Made by a program: the position numbers and the translations under genes. The notes beneath the pieces were generated by a model that saw only the letters and a program-made list of their open reading frames with translations, did no database searches and was not told the DNA's origin. Below, piece after piece: positions 4,034-26,274 of a stretch of DNA of 64,000 nucleotides. Position 1 is the first letter of the stretch. Each line of letters starts with the position of its first letter. Source of the DNA: an uncultured virus (IMG/VR IMGVR_UViG_3300008624_000002) (lineage: Duplodnaviria > Heunggongvirae > Uroviricota > Caudoviricetes). The stretch is taken from the IMG/VR virus record IMGVR_UViG_3300008624_000002; one strand, written 5' to 3'.

Positions 4034-5038
4034 CTACGAAGTAATAGGTGATCCAGGCCAAGTACCAGTGCCATCCCAACGGATAACTGGTGTTCGCCCT
4101 TGTCTTGCATATGTAGACGGCGACCTATGGTCGTAAGTTGAAGGTTGTTGTCCTTGTCTTGCATATGTAGTAGGACTTCTGTGGTCGTAAGTTGAAGGTT
4201 GTTGTCCTTGTCTTGCATATGTAGACGGCGACCTGTGGTCATATGTGAATGGCGACTGTTTACTTGTCGGATGTTGATATGTCGAAGGACTTCTATGGTC
4301 GTATGTCAATGGCGACCTATGGTCATAAGAAGATGGCGACCTGTGGTCATATGTAAACGGTGACCTGTGATTATATGTAGTAGGCGACCTATGGTCATAA
4401 GAAGATGGCGACCTATGGTCGTATGTAAATGGACTTTGTTTATTTCTAATATTGGGTTCTTGAGCATTACTAGGTTGCTGAATATCTCTAATATTAGGTT
4501 GTTGAGCAGACCTAATATTTGGTTCTTGTGCATTACTAGGTGATTGATTATTTCTTATATTAGGTTGTTGAGCAGACTTAATCGTAGGTTGCTGAGCATT
4601 ACTAGGTTGTTGAGCAGACCTAATGTTCGGTTCTTGAATGTTTCTAATGTTAGGTTCTTGACCAGCCTTAATCGTAGGTTGTTGATTATTTCTAATGTTT
4701 GGTTCTTGTGCGTTCCTAATGTTTGGTTGTCTAGCATTAGCAATATAAGGCGACTGGAATGTAAACGGTTGCCTATACGGTTGTCGAGCATTAGCAATAT
4801 AAGGACTTTGATAAGTAAACGGTTGTCTATATGGTTGTCTAGCATTAGCAATATAAGGCGACTGATAAGTAAACGGCTGTCTTGCATTATTCGGTTGTCG
4901 AGCAGACCTAATGTTAGGTTCTTGAGCAGACCTAATATTTGGTTGCCTAGCATTAGCAATATACGGCGACTGGAATGTAAACGGCGTCTGCGTTGTATAC
5001 GGTTGTTGTTGGTTTGCAATGACTGGTTGTTGTGGCAT
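4034..5038 (-). CDS. Pro-repeat fibre protein, partner B of pair 1
   Basis: 334 aa, of which 312 are Pro-initiated units (PNIRxAQE, PFTYDHRS, PYIANARQ, etc.); start overlaps the stop of the upstream gene. Confidence 0.8.
   Translation of the reverse strand: MPQQPVIANQQQPYTTQTPFTFQSPYIANARQPNIRSAQEPNIRSARQPNNARQPFTYQSPYIANARQPYRQPFTYQSPYIANARQPYRQPFTFQSPYIANARQPNIRNAQEPNIRNNQQPTIKAGQEPNIRNIQEPNIRSAQQPSNAQQPTIKSAQQPNIRNNQSPSNAQEPNIRSAQQPNIRDIQQPSNAQEPNIRNKQSPFTYDHRSPSSYDHRSPTTYNHRSPFTYDHRSPSSYDHRSPLTYDHRSPSTYQHPTSKQSPFTYDHRSPSTYARQGQQPSTYDHRSPTTYARQGQQPSTYDHRSPSTYARQGRTPVIRWDGTGTWPGSPITS
4091..5026 (-). repeat. Array of 40 even-length Pro-initiated peptide units
   Basis: Parsed by hand from the translation; PYRQ+PFTxQS counted as one 10-residue unit. 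Confidence 0.9.
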
Positions 5039-6663
5039 TAGAATTTCTCGTTAAAGTTATGCACCAACATGCCATTAACAAAATAGGTGTGATTTCCTTC
5101 AACACCACTTAAGTTATACACTGTCATATCTGCGTTTTCGTTAATTTCCATTATCTCTAATCCGCTTTCGTCTTGTCTATCAAACATTATAGCGTCTGTC
5201 ATAGAGAATAATGAATCCCCAATTGTAATTTCGTGTGAATTAATTCCTTCCATCCATGCGTGTTCTCTAACACACTTCTCTACATCAATAGCACCCCACT
5301 CTTGACTGTTTAACATAAATGGATGACTATCTGTTGTTTGCATGATTCTACCATCTGATAAGATGATATCATATACTGAACATGTTCTTGGTTCCATTAT
5401 GATTGAAACATCTTTAGGTTCTATACACTTAGTAGATTCGTTCCATGTCATTATCATTTGTCCCATTACAACATTTTCAATAGGCGATTGACTTCCATCT
5501 GCAAGCCATACTAATGAACCAGCAGCGAAGCAACCACCACCACCACCACCTGGTGTAGTGTATGGATTACGATAACTGTATGTCACTGGAGTTCTTGCGT
5601 TACCAGGTTGTCTTGCGTTATTCGGTTCCCTTGATTGATAAGTGAACGGCACTCTATGGTTGTAAGTAAAGGGTGACCTATGGTTATATGTAAAAGGGGT
5701 CTGATAAGTAAATGGCGTTCTAGCGTTATTTGGTTCCCTTGATTGATAAGTGAATGGTGTTCTCGCAGATGTTCTAGCGTTATTCGGTTGTCTTGACTGA
5801 TAAGTGAACGGTGTACGAGCAGAAGTTCTAGCGTTATTCGGTTCTCTTGACTGATAAGTGAACGGCACCCTATGGTTGTATGTAAAAGGCGACCTATGTT
5901 GATATGACGAAGGACTTCTATGATTGTAAGTAAAAGGCGACCTGTGATTGTAAGTATAAGGCGACCTATGATTGTAAGTAAATGGATGCCTGTATGTAAA
6001 CGGTGACCTATGGTCATAAGTAAATGGTGACCTATGATTGTAAGAAGTTGGATGTCTGTATGTAAACGGCGACCTATGGTCGTATGTAAAAGGCGACCTA
6101 TGTTGATAGGTAAATGGATGCCTGTATGTAGACGGCGACCTATGGTCGTATGTTAAAGGTTGTCTAGCCGGTCTAATATTAGGTTCTTGTTGGTTTCTAA
6201 TATTAGGTTCTTGTTGGTTTCTTATGTTTGGTTCTTGTGCGTCCTTAATCGTAGGTTGTTGATTATTTCTAATATTAGGTTCTTGTTGGTTTCTAATATT
6301 TGGTTCTTGTGCATTAGAAGGATGACGATAGATAACAGGTTGTCTAGCCTGCCTAATATTTGGCTCTTGTGCATTTGCAATATAAGGATATGGCGTTTGT
6401 GCGTTTCTTATATTTGGTTCTTGTTGGTTTGCAATATAAGGATATGGCGTTTGCCTATTCCTAATATTTGGTTCTTGTGCATTTGCAATATAAGGATAAG
6501 GTTGTTGAACACTCTGTTGTCCTGATGCGTTATTCCAACCAGTAGGTGTCTTGATGTAGATTTGGTCTACATCTTTCCATGTAGTAGGACCAGTTTTTAC
6601 CCAAGCGCCTTTAGTGGCATTCCAACCTGTGGGAGTTTTTACCTTCTGAGAGCCTGTCGCCAT
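5038..6663 (-). CDS. Pro-repeat fibre protein, partner A of pair 1: N-terminal KTxTGW hairpin cap, 312-aa repeat array, Gly6 linker, C-terminal Hint domain
   Basis: 541 aa; Hint motifs CFAAGS at the start, TTDSHPF (block B) and VYNL..EGNHTYFVNGMLVHN at the end. Confidence 0.85.
   Translation of the reverse strand: MATGSQKVKTPTGWNATKGAWVKTGPTTWKDVDQIYIKTPTGWNNASGQQSVQQPYPYIANAQEPNIRNRQTPYPYIANQQEPNIRNAQTPYPYIANAQEPNIRQARQPVIYRHPSNAQEPNIRNQQEPNIRNNQQPTIKDAQEPNIRNQQEPNIRNQQEPNIRPARQPLTYDHRSPSTYRHPFTYQHRSPFTYDHRSPFTYRHPTSYNHRSPFTYDHRSPFTYRHPFTYNHRSPYTYNHRSPFTYNHRSPSSYQHRSPFTYNHRVPFTYQSREPNNARTSARTPFTYQSRQPNNARTSARTPFTYQSREPNNARTPFTYQTPFTYNHRSPFTYNHRVPFTYQSREPNNARQPGNARTPVTYSYRNPYTTPGGGGGGCFAAGSLVWLADGSQSPIENVVMGQMIMTWNESTKCIEPKDVSIIMEPRTCSVYDIILSDGRIMQTTDSHPFMLNSQEWGAIDVEKCVREHAWMEGINSHEITIGDSLFSMTDAIMFDRQDESGLEIMEINENADMTVYNLSGVEGNHTYFVNGMLVHNFNEKF
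5056..5532 (-). other. Hint (intein-like) autoprocessing domain, Cys378 to Asn536
   Basis: N-terminal Cys after GGGGGG, TxxH motif, terminal His-Asn followed by FNEKF; no homing-endonuclease insert. Confidence 0.85.
5566..6501 (-). repeat. Array of 40 even-length Pro-initiated peptide units
   Basis: Parsed by hand from the translation; PY+PYIANxQE counted as one 10-residue unit. Confidence 0.9.
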
Positions 6664-8757: not shown

Positions 8758-9014
8758 TAGAAGGTACCCCCATTAATTGTCGCTAATGTCAATACTCCTG
8801 ATGTTGAATTATATGCTAAATCTCCACCTGCAGCCACTGATATAACGCCTCTAGCTCGAGCGGTAGTGTGATAAAGGTTACTTGAACCTTCACTAACATC
8901 ATCTGTATCTATTGTAGATAGTGCTGAAGCTACTATTTTACCAGCTGAACTAATTACTTCTGTGGAACCTACTGATAACCCATACTCAATTACGAAAGTG
9001 TTTTGTGTCGCCAT
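8757..9014 (-). CDS. Small fibre-related protein
   Basis: Shares the N-terminal F.I..GLSVG and the EGSSNLYHTTARAR motif with 6682-8757 (26 identical nt: 8866-8891 = 7013-7038); ends NGGTF. Confidence 0.65.
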   Translation of the reverse strand: MATQNTFVIEYGLSVGSTEVISSAGKIVASALSTIDTDDVSEGSSNLYHTTARARGVISVAAGGDLAYNSTSGVLTLATINGGTF

Positions 9015-9121: not shown

Positions 9122-9934
9122 TTAGACAGTGTGGTCGATTCTTTTGAACTTATATACTGTTGAGTTTGTAGTAGCACTTGCAACCCTAAGTCTAAGACTG
9201 CCACTATTGATATCAACTGAGAATGTTCCTAAGTCACTAGAACCACCTTGCAATACTGTTCCAAATTGAGATATAGATGCATTTGTTCCGTCATGAACAA
9301 CATGAACTTCTGTTATTTGATAATCACTTCCTGTAGCGTCTGAGATTGATATAGAGTATTTTGCACCTCTATATGTGGCAATTGCAAGACTATCTAAGGT
9401 CGATGCACTTGTCGATGTTGTAGTTAATGTTCCAGATACTAAATCACGATTTGCAAATGCTAATGTTCCACTACCATTTGTTTGTAGAACTTGATTTGCA
9501 GAACCATCACTTGTAGGATATGATAAACTTGCAGCTGTTAGAGTAGTAGAAGTTAAATCACCAATTCTTAAATCTGCATATGCATAATTTGTTCCACCAG
9601 TATTTACAGTTGTGGTTGGTTCTTCTTCTAAACCATCAAATAGTTTCCATGTAGAATCTGATGCATCTCTGAATAAACCTGTAAATTCTGATGCTCCACC
9701 ATCTGATAAACCATCGTTATAGTTTCCATAGAAACCAATATCAATTAAATCGGAAGAAGTGTTCTGATTTGCATATTCATACAACGAATCACCAACTGAT
9801 GTGGTGGTTGAATTAACTGTCACCGAAGTTCCTGTGACTGTTAAATTTCCATCAACAGTTAAATTTCCATCTACTTGGGTATTTAATTCGGATTGCAGAC
9901 CTAAATCTGCATAAAATTTCGCTTTAGTTGCCAT
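9122..9934 (-). CDS. Tail fibre/adaptor protein
   Basis: GNLTVTG..TVNS motif; C-terminal YRGAKY...E...VHDG beta domain shared with the next two genes. Confidence 0.7.
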   Translation of the reverse strand: MATKAKFYADLGLQSELNTQVDGNLTVDGNLTVTGTSVTVNSTTTSVGDSLYEYANQNTSSDLIDIGFYGNYNDGLSDGGASEFTGLFRDASDSTWKLFDGLEEEPTTTVNTGGTNYAYADLRIGDLTSTTLTAASLSYPTSDGSANQVLQTNGSGTLAFANRDLVSGTLTTTSTSASTLDSLAIATYRGAKYSISISDATGSDYQITEVHVVHDGTNASISQFGTVLQGGSSDLGTFSVDINSGSLRLRVASATTNSTVYKFKRIDHTV

Positions 9935-10014: not shown

Positions 10015-10425
10015 TTAAGCGTCTACTAAAATTCTCTCGAACTTAATTACACTTGACGAGTTAGATGCTGGTGTGCATCTTAATCTGACATTACTGCCAG
10101 ATATGTCTGCATCAAATGTCGCTATAGTTGCATCCTTTAATGTGCCGTATTGTGTTATTGTCACAGCCGAACCATCATGGACTAACATTATTTCCGTAGA
10201 GTGAAAGTCACTTCCTCTAGACATTGCAACGATGTATCTTGCAGCTCTAAAACTTGCGTGAGCAAATGTATCTAAATTAAACTGAGTAGTGGCTGTTTTT
10301 GTAGTAGCCCCTCTAGTCTTCTGTTTAGATGTCATAGATTTAGTAGTTGTGATACTATCTGATGTTGAGTCATAAGTAAGGTGTCTAATCAACTCTGCGA
10401 GTTTAAAACTATTTGTTATAGCCAT
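10015..10425 (-). CDS. Small virion structural protein (fibre adaptor domain)
   Basis: FRAARY...TEIMLVHDG...QYG domain paralogous to its neighbours. Confidence 0.65.
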   Translation of the reverse strand: MAITNSFKLAELIRHLTYDSTSDSITTTKSMTSKQKTRGATTKTATTQFNLDTFAHASFRAARYIVAMSRGSDFHSTEIMLVHDGSAVTITQYGTLKDATIATFDADISGSNVRLRCTPASNSSSVIKFERILVDA

Positions 10426-10439
10426 TTTTTATATCCCCC

Positions 10440-11264
10440 TTATGTATGCCTTATTTGGAAAGTGTCTACTGTTGTGTTAGTGTTAGCAGGAGTACATAAA
10501 AGTCTCATGTTTCCTGAATTAACATCTGCACTCAGCGTAAACAACGATGCCGTTGAATATACATCTCCGTATTGAACGAAAAATGCGGCCGATCCATTAT
10601 TAATTAACAAAACTTCAGCAGCGTGGGTGCCAGCAGAAGCATGCGTTGCACACAACACATACTTGATTGCCTTATTCGCAACTGCATTGGAACTCAATAC
10701 TTGGTTTGCGTTAGTTGTAGTGAAAGCTGTAGCAGTAAAATAACCTTGGACTAAGTCCGCAGCTGTTATTGCTACTACTTCTACAACATCACCTGATATT
10801 GCGTTCTGTGCTAATGTGACGGTAGAGGTATTGGTTGCAGTATAATCTGAACCACCATCTATCAATTTAACACCATTTAAGTATACTTGTTCTGCGCCTA
10901 CTGTGTAAGATAATGAATTTCCATCATCATCATTACCTGTAATAGCAGTTGTATTACTTGTTATGGTATATTTGAATATTGATATACCGGAACCTCCGAT
11001 ATCGCCCCATGAGAGCGTACCTGAACCGTTGGTCTTTATTACTTGACCATTTGTACCATCACTGGTTGGGAATGTTATAGCGTCATTGATAGTAAAAGTT
11101 TTTGGGATTGACCCAACTTCTACTATAGCAGCTGAACCGTCATTTTTCTCAGTGTATACCCTACCGTGATAGGTGTTTATCGCCAACTCACCAAGTGCTA
11201 AATCACTTGTAGCTGGAGTATCATTCTGAGTAGAACTTCGTTTAAACTGAATAACTGTTGCCAT
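10440..11264 (-). CDS. Tail fibre protein with Mtd_N-like N-terminus
   Basis: MATVIQFKRS...P...L..GELAIN; VYLNGVKL..GSDY module; C-terminal adaptor domain. Confidence 0.7.
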   Translation of the reverse strand: MATVIQFKRSSTQNDTPATSDLALGELAINTYHGRVYTEKNDGSAAIVEVGSIPKTFTINDAITFPTSDGTNGQVIKTNGSGTLSWGDIGGSGISIFKYTITSNTTAITGNDDDGNSLSYTVGAEQVYLNGVKLIDGGSDYTATNTSTVTLAQNAISGDVVEVVAITAADLVQGYFTATAFTTTNANQVLSSNAVANKAIKYVLCATHASAGTHAAEVLLINNGSAAFFVQYGDVYSTASLFTLSADVNSGNMRLLCTPANTNTTVDTFQIRHT

Positions 11265-11296: not shown

Positions 11297-12856
11297 CTAA
11301 AATGTACCGCCGTCTATACCAGTAATAGTGACTGCGCCACTGGTTACTGTGAAGTTTGCACTAGCGAAAGAAGCCACACCCTTATTGGTTGTAGATGCTT
11401 CTTCACCAACGATTGTTATACTTCCGTTACCATTAGTGATATCGATACCTTCACCAGCTGTTAATGTTCCAGCTGCAAAGTCACCATTACCACCATGACC
11501 AATCAATAATTGACCAGCTGATGGAGCGGATCCATCTACTGATGTTATTGAACCTGAAAGAGCAAGACCTGTTGCTTCTAATCCACCAAATACTGCGTTA
11601 CCAGCACTTCCTGAGAATACCTCAGAAGTATTAGTAGCATCTGCAATAAAGGTAAACTTGCTTGTTGAATCGTCAAATCCAAAGAATCCAACTTTAGCAG
11701 CTGAACCATTGTGATATCTAAACTCAATACCTCTGTCTTTGTTATCGTCAGAGCCTGGAGCAGTATCACCACCAACCGTAAAGATTGGATCGTCCACTGT
11801 TGTAGTTGTTGAATTAACTGTTGTGGTTGTACCATTAACTGTTAATCCACCTGTAACCACAAGGTTATTTCCTATAGTCACATTATTTGGAAGTCCAACT
11901 GTTAAGGTATTACCCGAACCAGCTGTTTCGATTTCGTTTGCAGTACCAGCGATAGTTAGTGTTTCACTATCTAAGTCAATGGATAACGCACCACCTGAAT
12001 CACCTTGGAAATCCAAGTCTGAACCAGTTAGTTGTGTATCGACATAATCTTTAATTGCAGCTGATGTTGCTAGAGTTGTGTCGTTATCGTTTGAACCGAT
12101 ACCTTCTGACTCTAATACAATTGTTGCATCAGCGAAAGATGCGAATACTACTGCATCGTCTGCCAATTTGTCTGCTGTGACTGCATCATTCACAATAGAA
12201 GCGGTGACAACTGCGTTAGATGCTAATTGGTCTGCACCAACAGCGTCATCAGCAATCATCGCTTGTTCTACAGCGTCATTTGCGATTGTTATTGCACCGG
12301 TATCTGCCATGGTAGCATCACCTGACATGATGTTATCTATCCATTTAGATGTACCTGTGTCGTACAACATCATCGAACCATCAGCAGGAGTTGTCAGATT
12401 AGTATCTGTTGCACCTGCGACAGTAGATGTTGTTGAAGCGAATGATAGGACTCCACTTCCGTTAGTTGCTAAAACTTGGTTTGCACTACCATCTGAACCT
12501 GGTAAAGTCCATGTGACATTACTTGCCACACTGTTAGGGGCTTTAAGACCTACATAGTTAGAACCGTTATCGGTATCTTCCATAATCTTTAAAGTACCAC
12601 CTGTAGATGCACTATTACCGATTTTAAAATCAGCAGGAGTTGCAGTTGAACCAGCAAGCATATCAGTATAATACTTACCACCAATCGCTTGGATTAATGC
12701 GGTAGAGTTATCTGAATCTACTGACTCAATATAAAGTTTTGCACTAGCACCGGAATTCGACCTATCTTGCACATATGCCAATTCGCCTTCAGCTAAATCA
12801 CTGATTGCTGGCGCACTCGCTCCTGTGCTTCGTTTGATTTGAATTACTGTTGCCAT
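11297..12856 (-). CDS. Tail fibre protein with Mtd_N-like N-terminus
   Basis: MATVIQIKRS...LAEGELAY; (I/L)ADDAV repeats; DDNKDRGIEF; ends IDGGTF. Confidence 0.75.
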   Translation of the reverse strand: MATVIQIKRSTGASAPAISDLAEGELAYVQDRSNSGASAKLYIESVDSDNSTALIQAIGGKYYTDMLAGSTATPADFKIGNSASTGGTLKIMEDTDNGSNYVGLKAPNSVASNVTWTLPGSDGSANQVLATNGSGVLSFASTTSTVAGATDTNLTTPADGSMMLYDTGTSKWIDNIMSGDATMADTGAITIANDAVEQAMIADDAVGADQLASNAVVTASIVNDAVTADKLADDAVVFASFADATIVLESEGIGSNDNDTTLATSAAIKDYVDTQLTGSDLDFQGDSGGALSIDLDSETLTIAGTANEIETAGSGNTLTVGLPNNVTIGNNLVVTGGLTVNGTTTTVNSTTTTVDDPIFTVGGDTAPGSDDNKDRGIEFRYHNGSAAKVGFFGFDDSTSKFTFIADATNTSEVFSGSAGNAVFGGLEATGLALSGSITSVDGSAPSAGQLLIGHGGNGDFAAGTLTAGEGIDITNGNGSITIVGEEASTTNKGVASFASANFTVTSGAVTITGIDGGTF

Positions 12857-13416: not shown

Positions 13417-13656
13417 TTAAAAAGTTCCGCCGTCTAAAACAGTTGTGGTCTCCCACTTATCAGTGGTTGCATTATAAGTTAAAAGTCCATCATCTGTTTC
13501 TGTCGCATTTACATCTGCGAGTTCTTGAATACTCTTAGCAGATAGGTCGGCTGCTCCTCCACTACCAACTGATACTTGTTTTGCTCTCAAGTTGGTTGTA
13601 TTTGATAATACACCACCTATTGTAGCGACTCTTGATACTACTCCTTTAATTGCCAT
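13417..13656 (-). CDS. Small fibre connector protein
   Basis: EL.DV.....DGLL.YN..T.KW module; ends LDGGTF. Confidence 0.6.
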   Translation of the reverse strand: MAIKGVVSRVATIGGVLSNTTNLRAKQVSVGSGGAADLSAKSIQELADVNATETDDGLLTYNATTDKWETTTVLDGGTF

Positions 13657-13988
13657 TATCTGGTTACTCCTGGTGTTATAATTGCTTGTCCTTCAACAAC
13701 TCTTGTTATTTTTCCTCCGGAACTAGTTATGTTCATGTCATAAACATATCTACCCGCCGTTAATGCTGCTGTTTGTGTATCAGTTAAAGACATTGTTATT
13801 TTTCCGTCAGCCGGTGTTCCATGAGCAGTAGTGAAATCTACTTTGGTACTAGAACCATATGTCTTTCTAATCTGACCCGCTGATGAATATCCAGTTAAAT
13901 TTAGAGTTTCACCGGTTGCATCAGACACATCGACTACTATTTCAAAGTCTGTTCCTTGGTCAATAAATAAATTTGCGATAATAGCCAT
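13656..13988 (-). CDS. Virion structural protein (fibre attachment, LtfC/BppU-like)
   Basis: NL.IDQG.DF...LNLTGY...QIRK...GRYVYD...RVVEG...TPGVT, a pattern common in T4-like marine phages. Confidence 0.65.
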   Translation of the reverse strand: MAIIANLFIDQGTDFEIVVDVSDATGETLNLTGYSSAGQIRKTYGSSTKVDFTTAHGTPADGKITMSLTDTQTAALTAGRYVYDMNITSSGGKITRVVEGQAIITPGVTR

Positions 13989-13993
13989 ACAAC

Positions 13994-14001
13994 TATTTAT
14001 A
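13994..14001 (-). promoter_or_regulatory. T4 late promoter TATAAATA
   Basis: Exact consensus, 5 nt before the ATG at 13988. Confidence 0.8.
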
Positions 14002-14005
14002 CATT

Positions 14006-14851
14006 TTAATTACTAAACTGGCCTGTGGGTACTGATTGATGAATTTTATTAACATTTGATGCATCCTTCTTAACGAACACTTCGTCAACTTTCTCTACTG
14101 TATTTGGTGCAGTTTTCATGAAAACACCTTTAGCTTTTGCAACTTGATTTATTTGTCTGGTACCAATATATGGTGATTGAGCATCATAGGGACTTCTGTG
14201 GTTATATGTTGCAGGAGACCTATGTTGATATGTAAAAGGTGACCTATGGTCGTATGTCAATGGCGACCTATGGTCATATGTAAATGGACTTTGTTTAACT
14301 CTAATATTGGGTTCTTGAGCAGCCCTAATATTAGGCTCTTGTTGGTTTCTTATATTTGGTTCTTGAACAACAAGGGGCTGTCTTGCAATATAAGGTGTCT
14401 GATTGTTTCTTATATTAGGTTCTTGTGCATCACTAGGTTGTTGTTTATTAGAAGTAGCTTGTGCGTTTCTTATATTCGGTTGTCGAGCACTATACGTGAA
14501 CGGCGACCTATGGTCATATGTAAAAGGCGACCTATGGTCGTATGTAAACGGCGACCTATGTTGATAGGTAAACGGCACTCTATGTTGATAGGTAAACGGA
14601 CTTCTATGTTGATAGGCATATGGTGACCTATGGTTGTATGTAAACGGTGACCTATGTTGATAGGTAAACGGACTCTGCTTACTTGCAATATAAGGATAGG
14701 GGTTTTGTTGATTCCTTATATTGGGTTCCTGAGAAGCCCTAATATTTGGCTCTTGAGCAGACTTAATCGTAGGTTGCTGAGCGTTCTTAATAACAGGTTG
14801 CTGCTGACTTGCAATGTATGGATAAGGGTATGGTGTTTGATTCTGTGCCAT
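14006..14851 (-). CDS. Pro-repeat fibre protein, partner B of pair 2, with a C-terminal hairpin cap
   Basis: 281 aa; same repeat vocabulary as pair 1; C-terminal KGVFMKT...KVDEVFVK resembles the N-terminal cap of 5038-6663. Confidence 0.8.
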   Translation of the reverse strand: MAQNQTPYPYPYIASQQQPVIKNAQQPTIKSAQEPNIRASQEPNIRNQQNPYPYIASKQSPFTYQHRSPFTYNHRSPYAYQHRSPFTYQHRVPFTYQHRSPFTYDHRSPFTYDHRSPFTYSARQPNIRNAQATSNKQQPSDAQEPNIRNNQTPYIARQPLVVQEPNIRNQQEPNIRAAQEPNIRVKQSPFTYDHRSPLTYDHRSPFTYQHRSPATYNHRSPYDAQSPYIGTRQINQVAKAKGVFMKTAPNTVEKVDEVFVKKDASNVNKIHQSVPTGQFSN

Positions 14852-14863
14852 TATATTCTCCTA

Positions 14864-16132
14864 CTAAGCGCTAGATTCTCCATTTGCTTCTGCCCTTAAA
14901 GACCAATCACAAACATATGTAATTGTAGGTAAAGATGAATGTTCAAAAATCAGATTAAGGGAAAAATCCGCTCTTTCAACCGTTGGTTCACCACCACTTT
15001 CTTCACTTTCAGCAGTAACCTCCCACTCAAAATACTTAGTGTCAACAGTTGCCGGAACTGTTGTAGCTGAAGCAGTTATGGTGCTGGCGTTATCATCACC
15101 ATCGGTATTAAATGTTCCATAAGTTCCGGTTTCTTGTGGAGTTGTTTGTGTAAATTTTACTGTATATGCACCGTCTCCAGCAAGCGTATGGTCAGAAGAA
15201 TTCACATAAAAGGCCCGAGTCAAAGTCGAATGACTAGAAGTTAAAGCACCAGCATGGTCTCTATGAGCAATAGTTTTAACCCAAGCTTCAAGACGACCAG
15301 ACACATATTTACAGGTTACTCTAATTCTTACATAACTATTAGAAGTATCATCCATTACGAAATCAATAGCTTGACCGTAAACATGAGTAATATCATCTAC
15401 CCAATTAAATGGTTTTGTTCCTGATGCATTATATGTTAAAGGTGACCTATGGTCGTATGTAAACGGAGACCTATGGTTGTATGTAAACGGTGACCTATGG
15501 TCATATGTAAACGGTGACCTATGTTGATAGGTAGTAGGTGTTTGCCCTTGTCTAGCATATGTCACAGGTTGTCTTCCTTGACCAATATTAGGTTCTTGAC
15601 CAGACTTAATCGTAGGTTGTCTTCCTTGAGCAATATTGGGTTCCTGAGCACTCTTAATGTTTGGTTGTTGAGCAGACTTAATCGTAGGTTGTTGAGCACC
15701 CCTAATATTTGGCTCTTGAGCAGACTTAATCGTAGGTGCTCGAGCACTAGCAATATAAGGAATTCTATGATTATAAGTTGAAGGGTGTTGATATATTATA
15801 GGATGCCTATAGGTCGAAGGACTTCTGTGGTCGTATGTAGCAGGTTGTCTTGCTTGATATGATGCTCGAGAAATACCAGGACTTCTATGTTGATATGTAG
15901 AAGGCGACCTATGGTCATATGTAAATGGTGACCTATGGTCGTATGTTAAAGGTTGTCTAGCCGGTCTAATATTTGGCTCTTGCTGAGACCTAATGTTAGG
16001 TTCTTGAGCATTCCTAATATTAGGTTCTTGCGTATTACGAATATTAGGTTCTTGAGCAATTACAGGTTGTCTTGCGTTGTAAGGCTGTTGAAAAGTTCCT
16101 AAACCATGTTTTATAAAAATATCGTCTGACAT
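14864..16132 (-). CDS. Pro-repeat fibre protein, partner A of pair 2, with a ~180 aa C-terminal globular domain
   Basis: 422 aa; repeats span aa 17-240, followed by a non-repetitive beta-rich domain. Confidence 0.8.
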   Translation of the reverse strand: MSDDIFIKHGLGTFQQPYNARQPVIAQEPNIRNTQEPNIRNAQEPNIRSQQEPNIRPARQPLTYDHRSPFTYDHRSPSTYQHRSPGISRASYQARQPATYDHRSPSTYRHPIIYQHPSTYNHRIPYIASARAPTIKSAQEPNIRGAQQPTIKSAQQPNIKSAQEPNIAQGRQPTIKSGQEPNIGQGRQPVTYARQGQTPTTYQHRSPFTYDHRSPFTYNHRSPFTYDHRSPLTYNASGTKPFNWVDDITHVYGQAIDFVMDDTSNSYVRIRVTCKYVSGRLEAWVKTIAHRDHAGALTSSHSTLTRAFYVNSSDHTLAGDGAYTVKFTQTTPQETGTYGTFNTDGDDNASTITASATTVPATVDTKYFEWEVTAESEESGGEPTVERADFSLNLIFEHSSLPTITYVCDWSLRAEANGESSA

Positions 16133-16136
16133 ATCA

Positions 16137-17729
16137 TTATATTAAAAAGTATATATGGCCGACTGATTTACCTGAACCACTTGGCAAACCACTAGTTAAA
16201 TCACTATCAGTTATAATACTATAGTCTAACTCGACATCGTCTCCATCTAACTTAACCCCATTACTTGTATTCACACTTAAAGTTGTTTGTCCATCTAATT
16301 GAGTGTCACTACCACCATCTGGATTGTCAACATATGCTTTTGCCAAACCACTACCAGCGACAATAACATCATTAACCCTATCGTCTGTAAAGTATTTGTT
16401 ATTTGAACCCTCTGATACAGCATCAGTTGTATTTGAATTGTTTGAAGGTTCCCAATAACTATTACCTGCGTCCCATACTAGTATTTGACCTGCGGTTGGA
16501 GAACTTGTATAATTAATATCAGATAATGCAGCTGCAGTTGAAGCACCAATTCTAGCATTTGCACGAGCATCTGCTCTTGCATCTGTATAATAAAGATTAC
16601 TTGAATCTTCATCAATATGAGAAGTGTTTAATTCTATATTTGCAGTACCATTAAATGCTACACCACTTATATTTCTTGCAGTGGCCAACGCAGTAGCTGT
16701 GTCTGCATTTCCTGTGACATTACCTGTTAGATTGCCATGAAAATCTGTAGCGTACATTTTGTTGAATTTTCTAGATGAGATACCAACTTGTTGTGTATTG
16801 TTTGTATTAGGTGTTATATTTGAATCAACTGTTCCAGCAAATGTGATTGTATCTGAAATCGCATTACCCAAGTCGACATTGCCATTTGCTACTAATGCGC
16901 CTGTTAATGTTGTAGTGCCTGTGACACCTAAAGTACCACCCAATAGTGTATTGCCAGATATATCAGCAACACCATTAATATCTAATGAACCACCTTCTAA
17001 TTCTCCGGATGCGGTTATGTTTACTGCACCTGTTATTGAACCACTTGATAATGATGCAGTGCCATCTGATACAGTTGGAAACTGAACTTTCTTACCTGAT
17101 ACTGTTGATATAACATCATCTTCTGCAAAAGTTTTGCCTGCAAGTTGAATTTTATATCCTGATTCTAATAAAGTTGTTGCAGGCGAATTAGTACCATTTA
17201 AAATAACACCATTTGCGTTTGAATTATAAATTGTATTTTCAGCACTCTTCTGGAAGAATGATGTTGCAGAACCACTAATTTCGGTTCCTATAAATGCACC
17301 AGTGTATGAGTATATTGTAAGTCTATCATTAGCAGACATTGCATTTGCTTGACCCGATGCGTAAGTTCCTTGTAATACTACTGATTCATGATTACCAGCA
17401 CCATCTGGACTTGCAACAATGTAATCTACATCTTCTACTAAGTGTCTTTCGTTTTTATAAACTTGAATCTTATCTTTTCTAAAGAGAAGTGTATTTGAAA
17501 AATTATCTGCTCCAGTAAAGGTGACTTGGTTTGCTGTTGCAACATATACATATTCTTGTAAGAAGAATTGTTTATTGTCTAATACATTAAGTGCATCTAT
17601 TACAGTATCATTTGAACCAAGTTTCATGGAACCATTCAAACCATTGATGTCTCCCACATCGTATGCGAGTTCATTATATTGCTTTCTAAAATCTTCTATT
17701 GTTGCAAAATTGTCTACTGTTTTAGCCAT
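16137..17729 (-). CDS. Tail fibre protein
   Basis: T.EDFR..YNEL N-terminus; GNLTGNVTGNADTATALATAR; EGSNNKYFTDDR; ends LP.....GHIYFLI. Confidence 0.7.
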   Translation of the reverse strand: MAKTVDNFATIEDFRKQYNELAYDVGDINGLNGSMKLGSNDTVIDALNVLDNKQFFLQEYVYVATANQVTFTGADNFSNTLLFRKDKIQVYKNERHLVEDVDYIVASPDGAGNHESVVLQGTYASGQANAMSANDRLTIYSYTGAFIGTEISGSATSFFQKSAENTIYNSNANGVILNGTNSPATTLLESGYKIQLAGKTFAEDDVISTVSGKKVQFPTVSDGTASLSSGSITGAVNITASGELEGGSLDINGVADISGNTLLGGTLGVTGTTTLTGALVANGNVDLGNAISDTITFAGTVDSNITPNTNNTQQVGISSRKFNKMYATDFHGNLTGNVTGNADTATALATARNISGVAFNGTANIELNTSHIDEDSSNLYYTDARADARANARIGASTAAALSDINYTSSPTAGQILVWDAGNSYWEPSNNSNTTDAVSEGSNNKYFTDDRVNDVIVAGSGLAKAYVDNPDGGSDTQLDGQTTLSVNTSNGVKLDGDDVELDYSIITDSDLTSGLPSGSGKSVGHIYFLI

Positions 17730-17938: not shown

Positions 17939-20900
17939 TTATGCCAGTGCAATACATCTAAGCGATGTCACTAATGGAACAATCGAAGTATTTTTTGCCT
18001 GGCCAACTATCTTCACTACAAAACCTGTGAACTCTGGTAAACCATCAGCAGTATATTCATACTCTTTAAAGTTTCTAGCATCTTGTTCTATTGCTGTATC
18101 TGGCGCACCTGTTGTGTTGAAGAATTCAAACCCTAAATCATCTATAGGTGTTGTTTCATCATTCTTCAATATTTTATACATAAATTTTAAATCTGTGTCT
18201 GGCGGTCTAAAGTTATCTGAAATAACTTTCAATTGCGTTGCAGGATTCTTAAGATTAACTTTTCTTGTTATATAAACCATTGCGTTATTGTCGCCATCTG
18301 GTTCTGTTGAATCTATATAAACTGAATTTGTTGTTAAATCAGCTGAAGAATCGATATCGTTAATTCTATTCATAATACCTAAACAACCAATTGTTCCAAT
18401 ATCGACAACTGGAGATACATTCTGATTACTAGTGTAGAATTGTAATCTACATTCAAACGATTTACTTGTAGTTCCGCCTGTTTGTTCTTCTTGTTCGTTT
18501 ATACTTGATGAAATTATACTTGGTCTCTCAAAGTAATTGTTATCATTCAATGTTATGAAATCGTTTGTTGAGCGTAATGTATATGTTGTATCTAATGAAG
18601 AAGACTCAGGAGAATTTGTTCCTGTTCTTCTTACACTACTAATCATTGCACAATCTTTATAGGTCAAAGAAGGTATCATTGTATGTAATACATCATAATA
18701 CAAGTTTTTAGTCATATAAGAAGTCTCACCACCACCTATTGTCGATTCAACAGCGTTAGTGTAATCTAAACCATAACTTGTTAAATCTGGTGTGCAAGTG
18801 AACGAATCTATTTCATAGTTTCCAATATTAGCAAAACTTTTATTAATGGCCGCAATTGGTATACCACCCAATGTGTCTCCAATTGTTGTAATACCGACTG
18901 TGAATGTTTGACTGTTAATTGTGACTGTGATTGTCTCTGTAGTTGTATATCCATAACCTGGATCAACAATACTAATAGCATTTACTGCATCTGTATCACT
19001 TGCATCAACAACTACTTTTACTTTCAGACCTATACCTGAACCACTACTAGCTACTGAAGCCTCTGTACCGCCGCCTGAACCTGTTGTATAAGTCTGAGCT
19101 GTCACAGCACCAGTAATCGCACTTGGTGTTGCAAGTTTAAGTGCTCCGTTTGATTTATCTCCTTCAACTCCCCATATAACGACATTTGAATCTGTATCGT
19201 ATAATCCATGAGCGTAAGAGTAAACTCTAAAGAATGGTTGATTGTTATAAACTTCTATTGAGTTATTTTGTAATTTTGATTCTGGTAAATGTGCATTTTC
19301 AAATATAACATTTGCATATGCGTTTGTTGTAAACTTAGCAGTTTTCATGTTAAATTTGAGGTCATCTGTTTGTTCTGCTGTCCATGTAGATGCATTTTGT
19401 GACATAAACAATGAACCAGCATATGGTTGACCTGATATAGTTTGTCCTGTAATTAAATCTTTTTCACCCATTCTTGATATGAAACAATTGTAATCTGTTG
19501 AATTAGTGTATACTACGAAACAATATTCTTGCATGTCTTCTAAGTATACTGGTGATTCGAATGTAAATGTTGTTGCAGATGAACCATCTTCTGAAATATT
19601 AACATCAGCAGGATTCTTTGTGACTATTGAAAATGGTATTGTCACTTGGCCTGGATAACCATTAACCATATTTCTAATTTCTATAGAAACAGGTAGACTT
19701 GCAGATTTAGATTTAAAGTATACATCTATAGATGTTAAGAACATACCACCATCTGATTCTACTAAGAATGATTCTGCTAATGGGTCACTCCAACCTCTTG
19801 GTTCTGGTTCCAATCTAAATGGAAAGTTTCTATTGAAGTCTTGTAATGTTTCCATTCTATCACCTACAGGCAATGCAACTGGTTGTGGCACTGGTACCGG
19901 AACTGGCACTGGCGCCGGAACTGGTGCAGGTGCTGGAACTGGTGCAGGCACTGGAGCAGGTGTCGGTGCCGGAGGTGGTGATACAATCGGTAATGTTGCA
20001 GCCGGAGGTGGTGGTGGCGGCGCAACTGGTTGTGGTGGCGCCGGAGGCGGAGGTGGTGGTAATGAACCATCTTGTGTCACATTTTGTCTCTCACCTTTCC
20101 TGACTATTGTTCTTTCGCCTGTTAGTCTCTCTGTGACTACTCTACCATTTCTCGTTGAAACAACTTCTGTTTGTGAACTGTTTAATAATCCTTGTGCTTG
20201 ATACATTCCACTACCTGATGAATCTGGATTACTCAGATTCGTTGCACTAGAGGTAACTCTAAGTTCTCTTTGTCCTGTTGGGAATCTTTGATAAGTATCA
20301 TTTGGTATATTGAAATGACATATTACTTTACCATTACCATCTGTTTTTACTCCAGATGCAACTGTTGTTCCACTATCTTGTGAATAAGTTGCTGAATCTG
20401 GTCTTACATATTGGTCTACTCTGATACCATCAAAGTATATGTAATGGTTCGTAAATGGTTTTAAGTTTGTTGCTGTTACCTTTATTTCTCTACTTCTGAT
20501 AAAAGGTATAACAGATACACTTACAATTCTGTTGTTTCTTGTTTCTACGAAGTCTTCAACTACTGATGTATTAACTCCTTGTCTTGACTGAACTTCTGGT
20601 GTATCAGTAATTTCTTTTCCTATTATTGTTCCTTGAACCCATTCACCACCTTGAGCAGGGTCACCAGACCACGAACCAGGTACTGTTGATTCAACAGATG
20701 TATCTACAACTGTTGGTTCACCAACCCATGTCGTTTGCCAGTTATTCCAAACTGTTCCAAGTGAGTTAGCATTTTCAGCAAGAACAGCATCAAAGTTTCC
20801 TTCTCTATTAATTCTAACTTCTGGTAATTGTTCTGAATCATTCCATATATCTGATTCTGGTTCTAATTTTACATTACCTATAAATGCGAATACATGATAT

Positions 20901-23900
20901 GGATTAACATTAACATGTCTTGATGCTTTACTTTGATTCACATATGATGATTGTGTATAAGGTAATGTAATTAAGTCACCAGTCTTTTGGTAACCTGATG
21001 AATATGATGTGTTTAAATTTATATCAAAGAATTGTGAATATGATTGTGGTCTTAATTGACCAACTTTAGTATCGATACCAACATGATAATCTGGATGAGA
21101 TACATCACCAATCTTATGGCCTCTAAAGTTATCTACTAAGAAACCTGATTTGTATCTATCGAAACCGTCTGCATCTAAAATTTGTTTTGTTTGTGTATCT
21201 TTCTCTAATAAGGATAATGCAGTGACCCTTTCTAGAGTTGTGACTCTTTGATTGATTTTACCAATGTCACCCATTGTGAATCTTCGATAATCTTTTGACT
21301 TAACAGTTATTTCACTTACCTTTTGTGTGAAGGCAGGAATGAACAATTCAAATAATTCTAATGCATCATCAATTGCGATAGGTCTTTGTGGTGTTATTGA
21401 AGGATTACCTTGTGATACTTCCCATGAACCACTTCTATGTAAGAATACTTTATCAATTCTTGGAACATAGAAAGTAATATTACCTTTAATCATTGATGTT
21501 GGTAATGCACATCTTGAATAAGATGACCTTGCAGTTGTTATGTCAGCATTTGAATTACCATCAATATCTGCTCTTGTGGCCTCAAAACTTCTTGCTTCAT
21601 AAGCAAACGGAGATTTTAATATACCTTCACCATTACCTGCTGTTCCAAATGCACTCAAGTCTAAGATTGATGTTTGGTCATATATATAACTATTACCACC
21701 AAAAGTAGCGTTACCAAATAACTGACCAACTGATGGTCTAAAGTCTACTGCATCTGCAAGTTCAAATTGACCATCTGGTTCGAAACCACCCAAGTCAACT
21801 TTGTTTGGTGAAAAGTTTGGAATATCTTTATATGCAATACCAGAATATGATGATACATCATAGAAGTCACCAGAACCACCTGTGAACATATCAAAGATAA
21901 CTGTTATCTGATTGTTTGGTGTAGGTTCGCCTTGTTTTAAAACTAGTTTAGCGTGGTCATAATAACCATCTCTTTGACCATTGTCTAAAGAATATCTGTT
22001 TGTAATCTCTGGTGAATTAGTTCCTATAGATGTTAGAGTTCCAATTGCACCTGATGTTTCATCTACTATTGTTTCGCCTGCTGTGAATGTGTGGTTTGTT
22101 AGATAATAGAAGTATGATGTAGTATCATCTCCATTCCAATCTATTAATTTTGCACGAACACCCGATGTTTGTCCTTTAATAATATTACCTGTTGCGAAAG
22201 CTCCCGATGTTTGGTCTATTACTGCATTGGGTGGTGTTGCGACACTATTTGTTGTTGTACCTGGAACTGCCTCAAATATTCCTCTTATCTTATATACATC
22301 TGCAACACCAAGTGATAATTCTTTATGGTCATATGCAGTTCCATAGAATGGATTGTCTGTATGAGAATCACTCTTACTGAATCTTACAGCACGAAACTCT
22401 CGTAAATTTTTTGCTTTAGCGGTAGGATTTGTGACACTTACTGTATACGATGCTCTTACTATTGCATTTTGGTCAGCACTGGTACCGATTGTGACGGTTG
22501 CTCCAGATATGGTTACATCATCACCTTGTAATACTGCACCATTACCTCTTCCCGAAGATGGACTTCCTGAAGCTTTTACTATTGCGAATTGATAGTTATC
22601 GTTGTTCTTTGGTTCAAAACTTTCGCTATTTTCTTTTGTTAATGTTATCTCACCACTACTTCCTACTGTAAATTCTTTTTGATATCTGACTGTAATTTCT
22701 GTTGGTGTATTTCCAGATACTTTATCTCTAGGCCATGCAAATATTGATGCAGATTGGTCTTGGTCATAAAGTTTAGCTCTTCTTCTTAAAAGACCAACTT
22801 GAACAGCAGCGGTTACACCTGTGGTTGCAACTGTTTGAGCGGTTGAGTTATCAGTAATTGTGTTGATTACTCGAGCATTACCTCCACCATCTAATATGAT
22901 ATCGCCTTTTCTTAGTTCTGTCAAGAACGCAGTTCCTACACCTGTGATAGCACCACCGGTTGTAATTGTTGCAAGGCCTGATATAATTTTATCATGGTCT
23001 GTTGCGACATTAGCAGTAAAGTTTTGCGTAGCACCAGTCTCACTAGATTTAGTTTGACCAACACCTCTTGCATCTTCTATTTGGAAACTTCTTACACTAC
23101 TAATTGTTGTGCTACTTGAATGTGTTCCTGCACCCTTTACTGTTAAATAATCTAATGTTGTAAATTTTCCGACAACATCGTGAAGCATGACAAAATCCTG
23201 CGGATGATTTTGATATGCAACTATACCTGTTGCACCTGATGTTGAACCTGTGACTTTATCACCAACTTTCATACTGTTTATTCCGAGTATATTACTTCCA
23301 TATGAAAGCATTGTAAACATCTTGATATCAAATAGATATAAGTTGTCGTAAGTTGACGAATATTCGTCTATGTTTCTGACTCTTGCCCAACCAATATGAC
23401 CAACACTGTTTGCACTTTCATATGCTTCTAATGTTCCATTTGTTGTTGGTGCAGTATCGAATATTTGAATTGGACTATATGAAGAAGTCGCAGTTGAATC
23501 TCCAAACTCTGGATATCCATGAGCATCATTTATTCTTAATTTGTTTCCTAATCTAGCGGGTGTGTTTGCGTTTGTAAGTGATTCTGTTGTTCTTGCCTTG
23601 TTTAATTCTAGATTGGTTGTTCCTGTTTTGTCTATTGAGTAACCTTTAACATATGCTTTACCTGGCGATACTTGCATGATGAATTTACTCTCATCACCAC
23701 CTTCCCATGCTTCATAGAACCCTCTGTTGAAAGTTCCATCGTTTAAGTGTTCTCTAAATGAATGTGTGAATTGGTTTAATACAAAATCACCATTTGCATC
23801 AAATGTTCGTTGTGCAAGTGTGTTTTCTATATGACTATAAATTGGTCTATTTATTTCTAACTCTATAATACCTTCATTAACTCTACCCAATTCTATAAAG

Positions 23901-24792: not shown

Positions 24793-26274
24793 TTACATTT
24801 CAATAATCAGTTTGATATCTTCAATCTGGTCTGCAGCTCTTGAGACTGCGCCTCTATTCTCGACATAGAGAATTTGGCCTGTAAATCTTGTCAACTCTGG
24901 ATGAGCGGCATTAGCAGCTTTTGAAACACCATCAGAGGTAACAGTTGTAGTTGGACTACCACCACCATTTACATGAACATTGTTAGAGTTTGCAAATGCG
25001 ACATATTCACCACCTACATTTACTACAGGTAGAGTTTTTAAATCATTACCTGACTTAGAAACAACTCTTACTTTAGCAGTAGATGCTGACTCTGTACCAT
25101 TATTGGTAAGTAAATCATCAACTGATATAGCAGTAGCACTAGTAACCGTTATTTGATTAGTTGCAGTCAATGAAGTTAATTGTGTGATAGTACCACCCGA
25201 TGATTGAACCGGATTCTTAATAAGACCAATTCGTCTGAAATCGTTATCAGTTGGGAAATCACCTGAACCTTCAGCAAACTCTAGTCTAGAGTTTACGATA
25301 CAATAGTTTCCACCTAATTCTTCGATTGGGTTTGCACCATGACCATTGATTGGTGAGATAACTGCATGTATAGTTGCGCCTGTACCAGCAGTTAATCCTG
25401 ATATAGTAGAGTTAAGAGTTGGGAACGATGCCCTCTTATAACCTGTTCCATATGAACTTGAATCTTTAAAAGCTACTGAACTTAAAGCACCACTCACAAA
25501 TGATAGAGTTGCAACAGCACCTGAGCCATCACCCTCGACAGCAACATCTAGTGTAAATGTAGTTGTTGAACCATTACTATAGCTTCCACCGGCAGCAGTG
25601 ACTACATAATGATAAATCGCACCATCTACAGCGCCGTTTTCTGCGTCCCATTGAGCAGAACCATCATCTGTTGCAGTAGTTCCGAAACCACCGTTTGTGC
25701 CTGAACCAACAACAGCTGCTTTAGCACCCAAAGTTTTAACTGGTATAAAGTCGTTGGTTACAAATTTAATAACATCTGAAGCGGTTACTGAATACATGAA
25801 AAGCCATATATAACCATCACTCTCGGTATTAATTCCACTAGTATGTTGTGGTTTCTGAGTAGAAACTACTGTAGAACCACCAGATACTCCTGTTTTTATA
25901 CATTTATATACTTTAAATTCGTCTGTTATTACATACCCTCTTCCATCGTAGAAGTTCGATACATTTGTGACATTAGTAGTATTAGAAGCGGAGTAATTAT
26001 CTCTCCATTCGTCATACTTAGTATTTGTTGTCCAGTTGTATCTTACTAATCCGTGTGATATATCAGTGTTTGAAACCTTCTTCAAAGCAATCATGTCTTC
26101 AAATGCGGATATCTCTTCTGATTCTGAATTCGCAGGTGCAGGAGGACTCGTGTCATCTGCCCATGCGTGTGGACGCCCAATGAAAATGTAGTTCGATTGA
26201 CCACTTTCTGCAAAGTCTTCAATGAACTGCTTCGCATTGTGCGTTCTAAATTTTTCTGTGATTATTGCTGCCAT
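24793..26274 (-). CDS. gp8: Baseplate wedge subunit gp8
   Basis: MAAIITEKFR..NA; VYKC; DGYIWLFMY; GHG; NDFRRIGLIKNP; ENR....R..DQIEDIK. Confidence 0.85.
   Translation of the reverse strand: MAAIITEKFRTHNAKQFIEDFAESGQSNYIFIGRPHAWADDTSPPAPANSESEEISAFEDMIALKKVSNTDISHGLVRYNWTTNTKYDEWRDNYSASNTTNVTNVSNFYDGRGYVITDEFKVYKCIKTGVSGGSTVVSTQKPQHTSGINTESDGYIWLFMYSVTASDVIKFVTNDFIPVKTLGAKAAVVGSGTNGGFGTTATDDGSAQWDAENGAVDGAIYHYVVTAAGGSYSNGSTTTFTLDVAVEGDGSGAVATLSFVSGALSSVAFKDSSSYGTGYKRASFPTLNSTISGLTAGTGATIHAVISPINGHGANPIEELGGNYCIVNSRLEFAEGSGDFPTDNDFRRIGLIKNPVQSSGGTITQLTSLTATNQITVTSATAISVDDLLTNNGTESASTAKVRVVSKSGNDLKTLPVVNVGGEYVAFANSNNVHVNGGGSPTTTVTSDGVSKAANAAHPELTRFTGQILYVENRGAVSRAADQIEDIKLIIEM

Follow-up and report, generated by a model that had tools for sequence, protein, structure and literature searches.

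In the genome of an uncultured tailed virus (IMG/VR record IMGVR_UViG_3300008624_000002; Caudoviricetes), two adjacent genes on the minus strand, here called A2 and B2, encode repeat proteins that mirror each other. When A2 is read from its N to its C terminus and B2 from its C to its N terminus, the proline-delimited blocks of the two proteins agree in length and face blocks of the opposite type. The window that we analyzed is a stretch of 64,000 nucleotides (nt) of this virus, which is a T4-like marine myophage, and it contains a second mirrored pair of genes, pair 1 (A1 and B1); A2 and B2 form pair 2. The best explanation of these observations, to which we assign a probability of about 0.72, is that A2 and B2 pair antiparallel in a fibre. 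At the level of sequence, a physical pairing of the two proteins is strongly supported by recurrence of the mirror rule in independent lineages, compensating insertions and deletions (indels), covariation between facing residues and natural fusions of the two proteins.

Blocks were defined by splitting A2 and B2 at prolines. A2 and reversed B2 share the series 6, 8x4, 8x3, 12, 8, 6, 14, 8x8, 10, 8x4, 10, which amounts to 218 amino acids (aa). At a single gapless offset (-33), 27 proline boundaries coincide and bound 26 facing blocks, of which two have 6 residues, twenty have 8, two have 10, one has 12 and one has 14. The two repeat types are PNIR/PTIK-like (PNIR-type) and PxTYxHRS-like (PFTY-type), and opposite types face each other in 23 of the 26 blocks, 12 with the PNIR-type in A2 and the PFTY-type in B2 and 11 with the reverse arrangement. 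The other three facing pairs are PSTYRH/PSDAQE, PVIAQE/PYDAQS and the 12-mer pair, and at none of the 26 places does a PFTY-type block face another PFTY-type block. In both 10-mer pairs, a PxTYxxxGxx-like block stands opposite PYPYIASxQx. The match continues beyond the 218 aa, with the 22 N-terminal residues of A2 opposite a 22-residue block of B2; these are the first 22 residues of the B2 C-terminal module, and its last 33 overhang. An earlier reading of the sequence (the original prediction) had described the mirrored series, running from PVIAQE to PLTYNASGTK in A2 and from PYDAQS to PYPYIASQQQ in reversed B2, and proline splitting reproduced it exactly over the 218 aa. That reading had also stated that PNIR/PTIK blocks face PFTY blocks, that PVTYARQGQT faces PYPYIASKQS as in pair 1 and that the rule holds twice with different patterns. 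The 23 opposite pairs bear out the first statement, the same 10-mer pairing was found in pair 1, and pair 1 has a different series that is also a perfect mirror, with 41 coincident boundaries.

When the block order of B2 was shuffled (n = 2000), 15.0 boundaries coincided on average and 22 at most; no shuffle reached the 27 observed. The same procedure applied to pair 1 (n = 2000) gave a mean of 17.7 and a maximum of 28, and again none reached the 41 observed. Chance is excluded as the source of the mirror match. A parallel alignment of A2 and B2 had 18 coincident boundaries and a log-odds score of 13 bits, compared with 303 bits for the antiparallel alignment. Non-cognate A/B combinations within the phage gave 16 boundaries and 92–97 bits, whereas the cognate pairs gave 27 or 41 boundaries and 303 or 473 bits. 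The region 14006–16132 contains no inverted DNA repeat of 14 nt or more, and both genes lie on one strand; the mirror relation therefore exists at the protein level only. The same two grounds led us to reject sense-antisense coding of the repeat types. Inspection by hand also showed that reverse-complemented codons do not convert one repeat type into the other.

Homology searches at E<=1e-3 returned 327 relatives of A2 and 282 of B2, all from marine or other metagenomes and without an informative name (a few are labelled 'hypothetical protein'). None of A2, B2 and B1 matched a Pfam or PHROG family (for B2, at E<=0.01 in Pfam and E<=0.001 in PHROG), and a search of the ESM Atlas with B2 gave no usable match. 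In IMG/VR, the A query identified 12 loci and the B profile 68, some contigs being common to both. Together with the window, these 80 loci made up 81 sources containing 64 A-then-B gene pairs, of which 39 are unique (38 from the loci plus pair 2), and the order A then B is the same in all 39. The N terminus of A (MSDDIFIK.. or MADEIYIN..) and the C-terminal module of B (..VAKVKGVF..VFVKKD..EKIHQ..) are kept across the loci; what varies is the repeat pattern and, in A, the C-terminal domain. An alignment of 17 B proteins contained 24 invariant columns, mostly in the C-terminal tail.

The generality of the mirror rule was assessed with 40 unique A/B pairs, the 38 from IMG/VR loci and the two of the window. 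By gapless antiparallel boundary count, the cognate B ranked first against unrelated B proteins in 25 of the 40 pairs (median z 3.95). A log-odds matrix of facing residues, trained on the two pairs of the window only, was tested on the 38 independent pairs and placed the cognate first in 20 of them; cognate scores reached 256 bits, and parallel controls gave 12–23 bits. Across 12 other lineages, 141 of 231 facing blocks were of opposite type and 23 were of the same type, the remaining 67 involving unclassified blocks or a 6-mer of the PSNAQE type. Shaft lengths were also compared, with the end of the A shaft taken from a composition breakpoint trained on A2 and the B shaft measured up to the tail motif. 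The lengths of the A and B shafts are correlated (Spearman 0.87, Pearson 0.76; 29 distinct points from 38 pairs), with differences mostly between -9 and +19 residues. The composition breakpoint replaced a definition of the A shaft end by proline spacing, which broke at early gaps (Pearson 0.43; 0.20 for distinct points).

The closest relative, from locus L001, has 50% identity in A and 75% in B. Its A protein lacks 16 residues of A2, corresponding to two PFTY-type blocks at about aa 208–223, and its B protein lacks 16 residues of B2, corresponding to two PNIR/PTIK-type blocks at about aa 25–40. As the A and B positions sum to 249 in the mirror register, the two gaps oppose each other, within the ambiguity of placing gaps in repeats. 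Covariation was examined in 152 pairs of facing 8-mers drawn from 15 lineages, against 1000 shuffles in which partners were exchanged only inside a given protein pair. Residues at positions 2 and 4 of a PNIR-type block vary together with those at positions 6 and 8 of the PFTY-type block opposite, as do those at PNIR-type positions 6 and 8 with PFTY-type position 2 (z 10–13, values reached by 0 of 1000 shuffles). For example, R4 goes with H6 and S8, A4 (as in PYIA) with N6 and Q8, A6 with F2, and Q6 with L2. This coupling of even with even positions is as in an antiparallel ladder whose facing side chains lie on one face. The physical register may accordingly be shifted by one residue from an exact superposition of the blocks.

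In some relatives the two shafts occur in one chain. Among the 81 sources, 9 loci carry fusions of A and B in a single open reading frame (ORF), which represent 8 unique proteins. The N-terminal motif of A and the C-terminal motif of B were present together in 33 of 246 fetched proteins, and the single-chain forms, those of the loci included, are 445–543 aa long. By motif, the rest of the fetched set comprised 142 A-like proteins, 9 B-like proteins and 62 others. The fused chain of locus L037 is the best case, since it mirrors itself at offset -33, the same as in the two-gene pairs. Other fused forms have peaks at offsets of -34 to -48, and a few are without a clear peak. AlphaFold2 was run on one fused protein, P0108, with an alignment of 44 fused sequences. 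The model contains two predicted 59-residue strands, 13–71 and 383–441, with a predicted local distance difference test score (pLDDT) of about 50–60. The limits of these strands sum to 454, whereas 455 is expected in the mirror register, which is a weak hint from a low-confidence model.

The original prediction had placed a globular domain of ~180 aa at the end of A2 (aa 241–422), a part that is non-repetitive in the translation, and had proposed this domain as a candidate receptor-binding tip. AlphaFold2, given an 11-sequence alignment, predicted the 182-aa domain to be all-beta with ten strands (pLDDT 72.2; predicted template modelling score, pTM, 0.74). Only 10 relatives of the tip were found at E<=1e-3 among 1.84 billion representatives. 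The fold search suggested at that time was run with Foldseek and VIA-align and yielded nothing informative. Foldseek found no match in the PDB at E<=0.001 (best TM-scores 0.15–0.31), and the best result of the wide VIA-align search was Z 5.5, to assorted beta-sandwiches and below the informative level of the tool. We therefore leave the A2 tip without a family assignment and make no claim of a new fold. In loci L005 and L006, the shafts are almost identical to about aa 330 and the C-terminal domains are unrelated; judging from these sequences, such an exchange of tips between near-identical shafts is what one would expect if the tip were an exchangeable receptor-binding part. The proposal of a receptor-binding tip is favoured by a predicted beta-sandwich that would lie at the far end of the hairpin and is swapped in relatives, but it has gained no informative structural match.

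A terminal Hint/intein-like domain is present in the outward chain of pair 1 (5038–6663, minus strand), at about aa 376–536, where it runs from GGGGGG-C to ..VHN and is followed by FNEKF. Its match to PF14890 (34.7 bits) is just below the 35.8-bit cut-off. The same kind of domain replaces the beta-sandwich tip in many A relatives. In pair 1 it could serve in self-cleavage or activation of the chain end beside the N terminus of B1, and it might even link A1 to B1 at the tip.

In the model that we favour, A2 and B2 would together make up a single two-chain fibre shaft, encoded in the host-recognition (tail-fibre) module of the phage. A2 would leave a proximal joint and extend outward for ~240 residues as short proline-delimited beta segments, ending in the variable beta-sandwich tip. 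B2 would begin next to the tip and return antiparallel to A2, block against block, with PNIR-type blocks packed against PFTY-type blocks and the 6-, 10-, 12- and 14-residue blocks packed against partners of equal length. The conserved 55-residue end module of B2 and the 22 N-terminal residues of A2 would together form the joint to the upstream fibre protein. Irregular blocks would set a single register among otherwise interchangeable 8-mers, and they would also set the pattern of pair 2 apart from that of pair 1. The covariation points to a probable beta-ladder geometry, in which even-numbered positions of the blocks in either chain would lie on a common face. The shaft may be about 70–80 nm long if the chains are fully extended, and by analogy with the six-stranded needle of T4 gp37 it may be a trimer of hairpins. 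A2 and B2 would be part of the virion, and the tip may bind a receptor. The original prediction had interpreted each block pattern as a barcode that keeps cognate partners together and sets fibre length. The correlated lengths of the A and B shafts fit the latter function. As for the former, non-cognate combinations match far worse in sequence, but runs of 8-mers could pair locally. Prediction of a 1:1 complex of A2 aa 1–250 with B2, using alignments, was uninformative either way (score 0.00, mark 0.32, partner pLDDT <50).

Several observations weigh against this model. The repeats place a proline at every eighth residue and are nearly devoid of aliphatic core residues, which is unusual for a stable two-stranded ribbon; a higher oligomer would therefore be needed. 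The AlphaFold2 model of fused P0108 was of low confidence (mean pLDDT 41.5, pTM 0.19), and shared ancestry and tandem duplication of block pairs inflate the covariation statistics to an uncertain extent. The strict mirror test was failed by 15 of the 40 unique pairs (L004, which was tied, L039, L042, L046, L050, L051, L054, L055, L064–L066, L069–L071 and L074), and the transferred log-odds matrix failed in 18 of 38, in both cases all from divergent groups with degenerate repeats. At the sequence level, the mirror rule is shown to hold for about half of the sampled diversity. The divergent groups are covered by the looser length correlation only, in which some pairs deviate by +64 to +151 residues, where the tip has a shaft-like composition. 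Searches of 50,697 deposited phage records by tblastn with A2, B2, the B2 tail and a fused form gave no match; the BLAST low-complexity filter may hide repeats, and the non-repetitive B2 tail was also without a match at E<=1. When profiles of the fused form and of the B family, as well as A2, were compared with solved chains at E<=1, nothing but an irrelevant match at 0.24 was found. The HxH motif is absent from A2, B2, A1 and B1, and each PFTY-type block has a single His.

The alternative that survives best, although we consider it unlikely, is that B2 acts as a template or assembly chaperone of matching length, which would pair with the A2 shaft while it folds and then dissociate. B2 is encoded directly downstream of A2 with its own ribosome-binding site, a position in which fibre chaperones such as T4 gp38 and the Tfa proteins of Mu and lambda are usually encoded. 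Mirror complementarity would suit a template as well. However, the fused forms hold both shafts in one polypeptide. In addition, the C-terminal module of B, which is the most conserved part of the system, faces the conserved N terminus of A, an arrangement that suits a permanent joint, and the families in Pfam and PHROG that B2 failed to match include those of chaperones. Quite improbable, in our judgement, is a compact two-chain beta-solenoid or prism in which the A2/B2 ribbon is coiled with several blocks per turn into a spike of ~10 nm. Its appeal is that 20 of the 26 blocks have 8 residues, the repeat length given for the gp5 beta-helix in part of the published account (PMC3004832), and that pair 1 contains an 8-8-6 stretch with a three-block period. 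Yet the 6-, 10-, 12- and 14-residue blocks and the two-block periods (10-8-10-8) occur at arbitrary places and would break a fixed number of blocks per turn, the low-confidence AlphaFold2 model has continuous 59-residue strands and no solenoid, and the known gp5 helix is made of parallel chains. Finally, it is hardly credible that the mirror pattern is a by-product of repeat duplication, inversion or concerted evolution in proteins that do not touch; the two genes do share both repeat types and find each other in homology searches, but they lie on one strand with no DNA inverted repeat, inversion would not convert one repeat type into the other, and mirrored compensating indels, within-pair covariation and fused forms would be unexpected without selection on contact.

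The coordinates of the A2/B2 pair and of associated features are collected in Table 1.

Table 1. Pair 2 and associated features of the window (all on the minus strand; positions are those of the whole window).
Feature	Position	Strand	Basis or remark
A2, 422 aa, putative outward chain of pair 2	14864..16132	-	ORF list
A2 aa 1-22 (MSDDIFIKHGLGTFQQPYNARQ), conserved N-terminal anchor	16067..16132	-	N terminus kept across loci; faces 22-residue B2 block
A2 aa 23-240, shaft, 26 proline-initiated blocks, 218 aa	15413..16066	-	Proline splitting
A2 aa 241-422, non-repetitive distal tip, predicted all-beta sandwich	14867..15412	-	Translation, AlphaFold2
B2, 281 aa, putative returning chain of pair 2	14006..14851	-	ORF list
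B2 aa 9-226, 218-aa shaft, mirror complement of A2 shaft	14174..14827	-	Block match
B2 aa 227-281, conserved C-terminal module (..VAKAKGVF..VFVKKD..KIHQSVPTGQFSN)	14009..14173	-	B alignment
TAGGAG ribosome-binding site, 6 nt ahead of B2 start codon	14858..14863	-	Read directly
Upstream fibre gene, 530 aa, C terminus ..GHIYFLI	16137..17729	-	PHROG 454 and 1833, tail fibre protein
Pair 1, putative outward chain and returning chain	5038..6663 and 4034..5038	-	Second mirrored pair, same phage

The window is a structural region in which the genes from ~4000 to 39500 are all on the minus strand. A2 and B2 are flanked by matches to tail-fibre and baseplate-wedge PHROGs, which places them in the fibre/baseplate module of a tailed phage. 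The baseplate wedge protein (24793–26274) has 31–35% identity to proteins of Pelagibacter phages HTVC008M and Mosig and of Synechococcus phages. In pelagimyophages, the region downstream of VrlC has been described as a host recognition cluster, and the passages of that paper on the cluster do not mention the repeats described here (PMC7029224). We take the 2265-aa protein encoded at 17939–24736 (minus strand), which matches PHROG 358 (unknown function), to be a VrlC homologue on the basis of position and size, without a named match. The fibre genes that follow it correspond to the pelagimyophage host recognition cluster downstream of VrlC. The 2265-aa protein also contains a long proline-rich linker with PPPPP and (PAPV)n runs at aa ~1440–1500. 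In related loci, an ORF ending in GH(L/I)(W/Y/F)F(V/L/I)(V/I) directly precedes 45 of 46 unique A or fused genes (36 by a first pattern and 9 more with F at the fourth place), the remaining one being at a locus edge. From this synteny, the upstream fibre gene of the window is likely to encode the proximal part that carries the A/B joint.

The B2 start codon lies 12 nt past the A2 stop codon in the same frame, and the gap holds a second in-frame TAG. Read-through from A2 into B2 was rejected because two in-frame TAG codons intervene. One virus record that shares 90% of the words of the window contains an identical stretch, and the stretch is nearly whole (92–96% of its words) in four marine-metagenome runs of one study, which may be its source. 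Other sequencing runs carry parts or relatives of it, with contigs that break within the repeats; 'joints' listed in this comparison of runs are repeat-derived and were disregarded. One metatranscriptome contains two short contigs (~165 nt and ~60 nt of the stretch), by which transcription is not shown.

Additional features of the fibre cluster, all on the minus strand, were noted. The next gene after B2 (13656–13988) belongs to an LtfC-like or L-shaped tail fibre assembly family (PHROG 3304), and between it and the B2 stop codon is TATAAATA (13994–14001), which we take to be the T4 late-promoter consensus. Three fibre-like proteins, encoded at 6682–8757, 8757–9014 and 14864–16132, have an N-terminal motif in common (MTDKNFIIKNGLSVG, MATQNTFVIEYGLSVG and MSDDIFIKHGLGTF, respectively), which may be a common docking peptide. 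The C terminus ..(N/D)GGTF is the same in the proteins encoded at 8757–9014, 11297–12856 and 13417–13656. The consecutive genes at 9122–9934, 10015–10425 and 10440–11264 appear to have a similar C-terminal domain (..HVVHDGT.. or ..LVHDGSA.., with an ..RLR.. strand near the end) and look like paralogous fibre tips. On the plus strand, long open frames lie opposite the repeat genes at 14246–14626 (126 aa) and 15521–15781 (86 aa). PNIR-like strings occur in antisense because the AATATT of the PNIR codons is its own reverse complement, and these two frames most likely arise from repeat periodicity rather than being genes.

Literature searches, which covered few subscription journals, found no description of such gene pairs or of a pairing code, and a search with the repeat motifs gave unrelated matches only. 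To our knowledge, phage fibres are homotrimers of single gene products. A more far-reaching possibility, which we put forward tentatively and hold to be somewhat less than an even chance, is that A2 and B2 embody a sequence-programmable code between two repeat alphabets. Block type and length would specify the antiparallel partner, and the order of the irregular blocks would encode register, length and identity. Such a code would be a protein counterpart of strand complementarity, and it would allow several orthogonal two-chain fibres per virion and the resizing of fibres by paired insertions. A shaft of two different, oppositely directed chains that an amino-acid code readable from sequence holds in register would represent a new principle of fibre construction and resizing, and it would provide protein design with natural orthogonal, length-programmable heteromeric rods. 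The family is abundant in marine viral metagenomes, as judged from the 327 A2 relatives and the 68 IMG/VR loci found with the B profile. Since it lies in the host-recognition region of uncultured T4-like phages, a region that is barely annotated, understanding it would help to read host range from sequence by way of its conserved joint, coded shaft and exchangeable tip.

Among known systems, the chaperones T4 gp38 and Tfa resemble B2 in their place directly behind a fibre gene, which B2 occupies with a 12-nt gap and its own ribosome-binding site. Unlike those chaperones, to whose families it has no match, B is a mirror of the shaft over its full length, and many relatives have it fused to A. 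The stalk of streptococcal antigen I/II is a functional analogue, in which alanine-rich and proline-rich repeats that flank a tip domain pair antiparallel into a long stalk and present a variable domain; the proposed A2/B2 fibre would likewise use two repeat types in an antiparallel arrangement. That stalk combines an alpha-helix with a polyproline II helix in one polypeptide of a bacterial cell-wall protein, whereas A2 and B2 have no homology to it and give no evidence of helices. The C-terminal triple-stranded beta-helix of T4 gp5 is, in part of the published account, an elongated beta structure of a T4-type tail built from an octapeptide repeat (PMC3004832), and a repeat of that length accounts for 20 of the 26 facing blocks here. 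Whereas gp5 is a parallel, three-start homotrimer with one repeat type, A2 and B2 are two chains with antiparallel complementarity, a proline at every block start and variable block lengths. Parallel, identical chains of the gp5 kind do not fit, because the signal is antiparallel between different chains and parallel alignments score at background level.

The closest architecture is the needle of T4 gp37 (D10–D11), a six-stranded antiparallel beta structure formed by the trimer. The proposed A2/B2 fibre would share with it a fold-back with a receptor-binding tip at the far end, and both are located in a T4-like fibre module. In part of the published account of gp37 (PMC6957217), D10 comprises residues 811–881 and 1010–1026 and the elongated D11 comprises residues 882–1009, such that the chain goes from the collar to the tip and returns, and the needle is lined by histidines, with the receptor-binding tip at its far end. 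The mirror register, the position of the A N terminus opposite the B C terminus and the fused forms all fit an antiparallel return of this type, the sole structural model being of low confidence. The HxH motifs of gp37, which A2 and B2 are without, bind iron. Since homology to gp37 and the HxH motif are both absent, we suggest that the A2/B2 shaft works like gp37 and do not propose membership in its family. In contrast to gp37, the outward and returning strands would here usually be separate gene products, made of two complementary repeat alphabets with mirrored irregular blocks, in a shaft roughly three to four times longer per strand.

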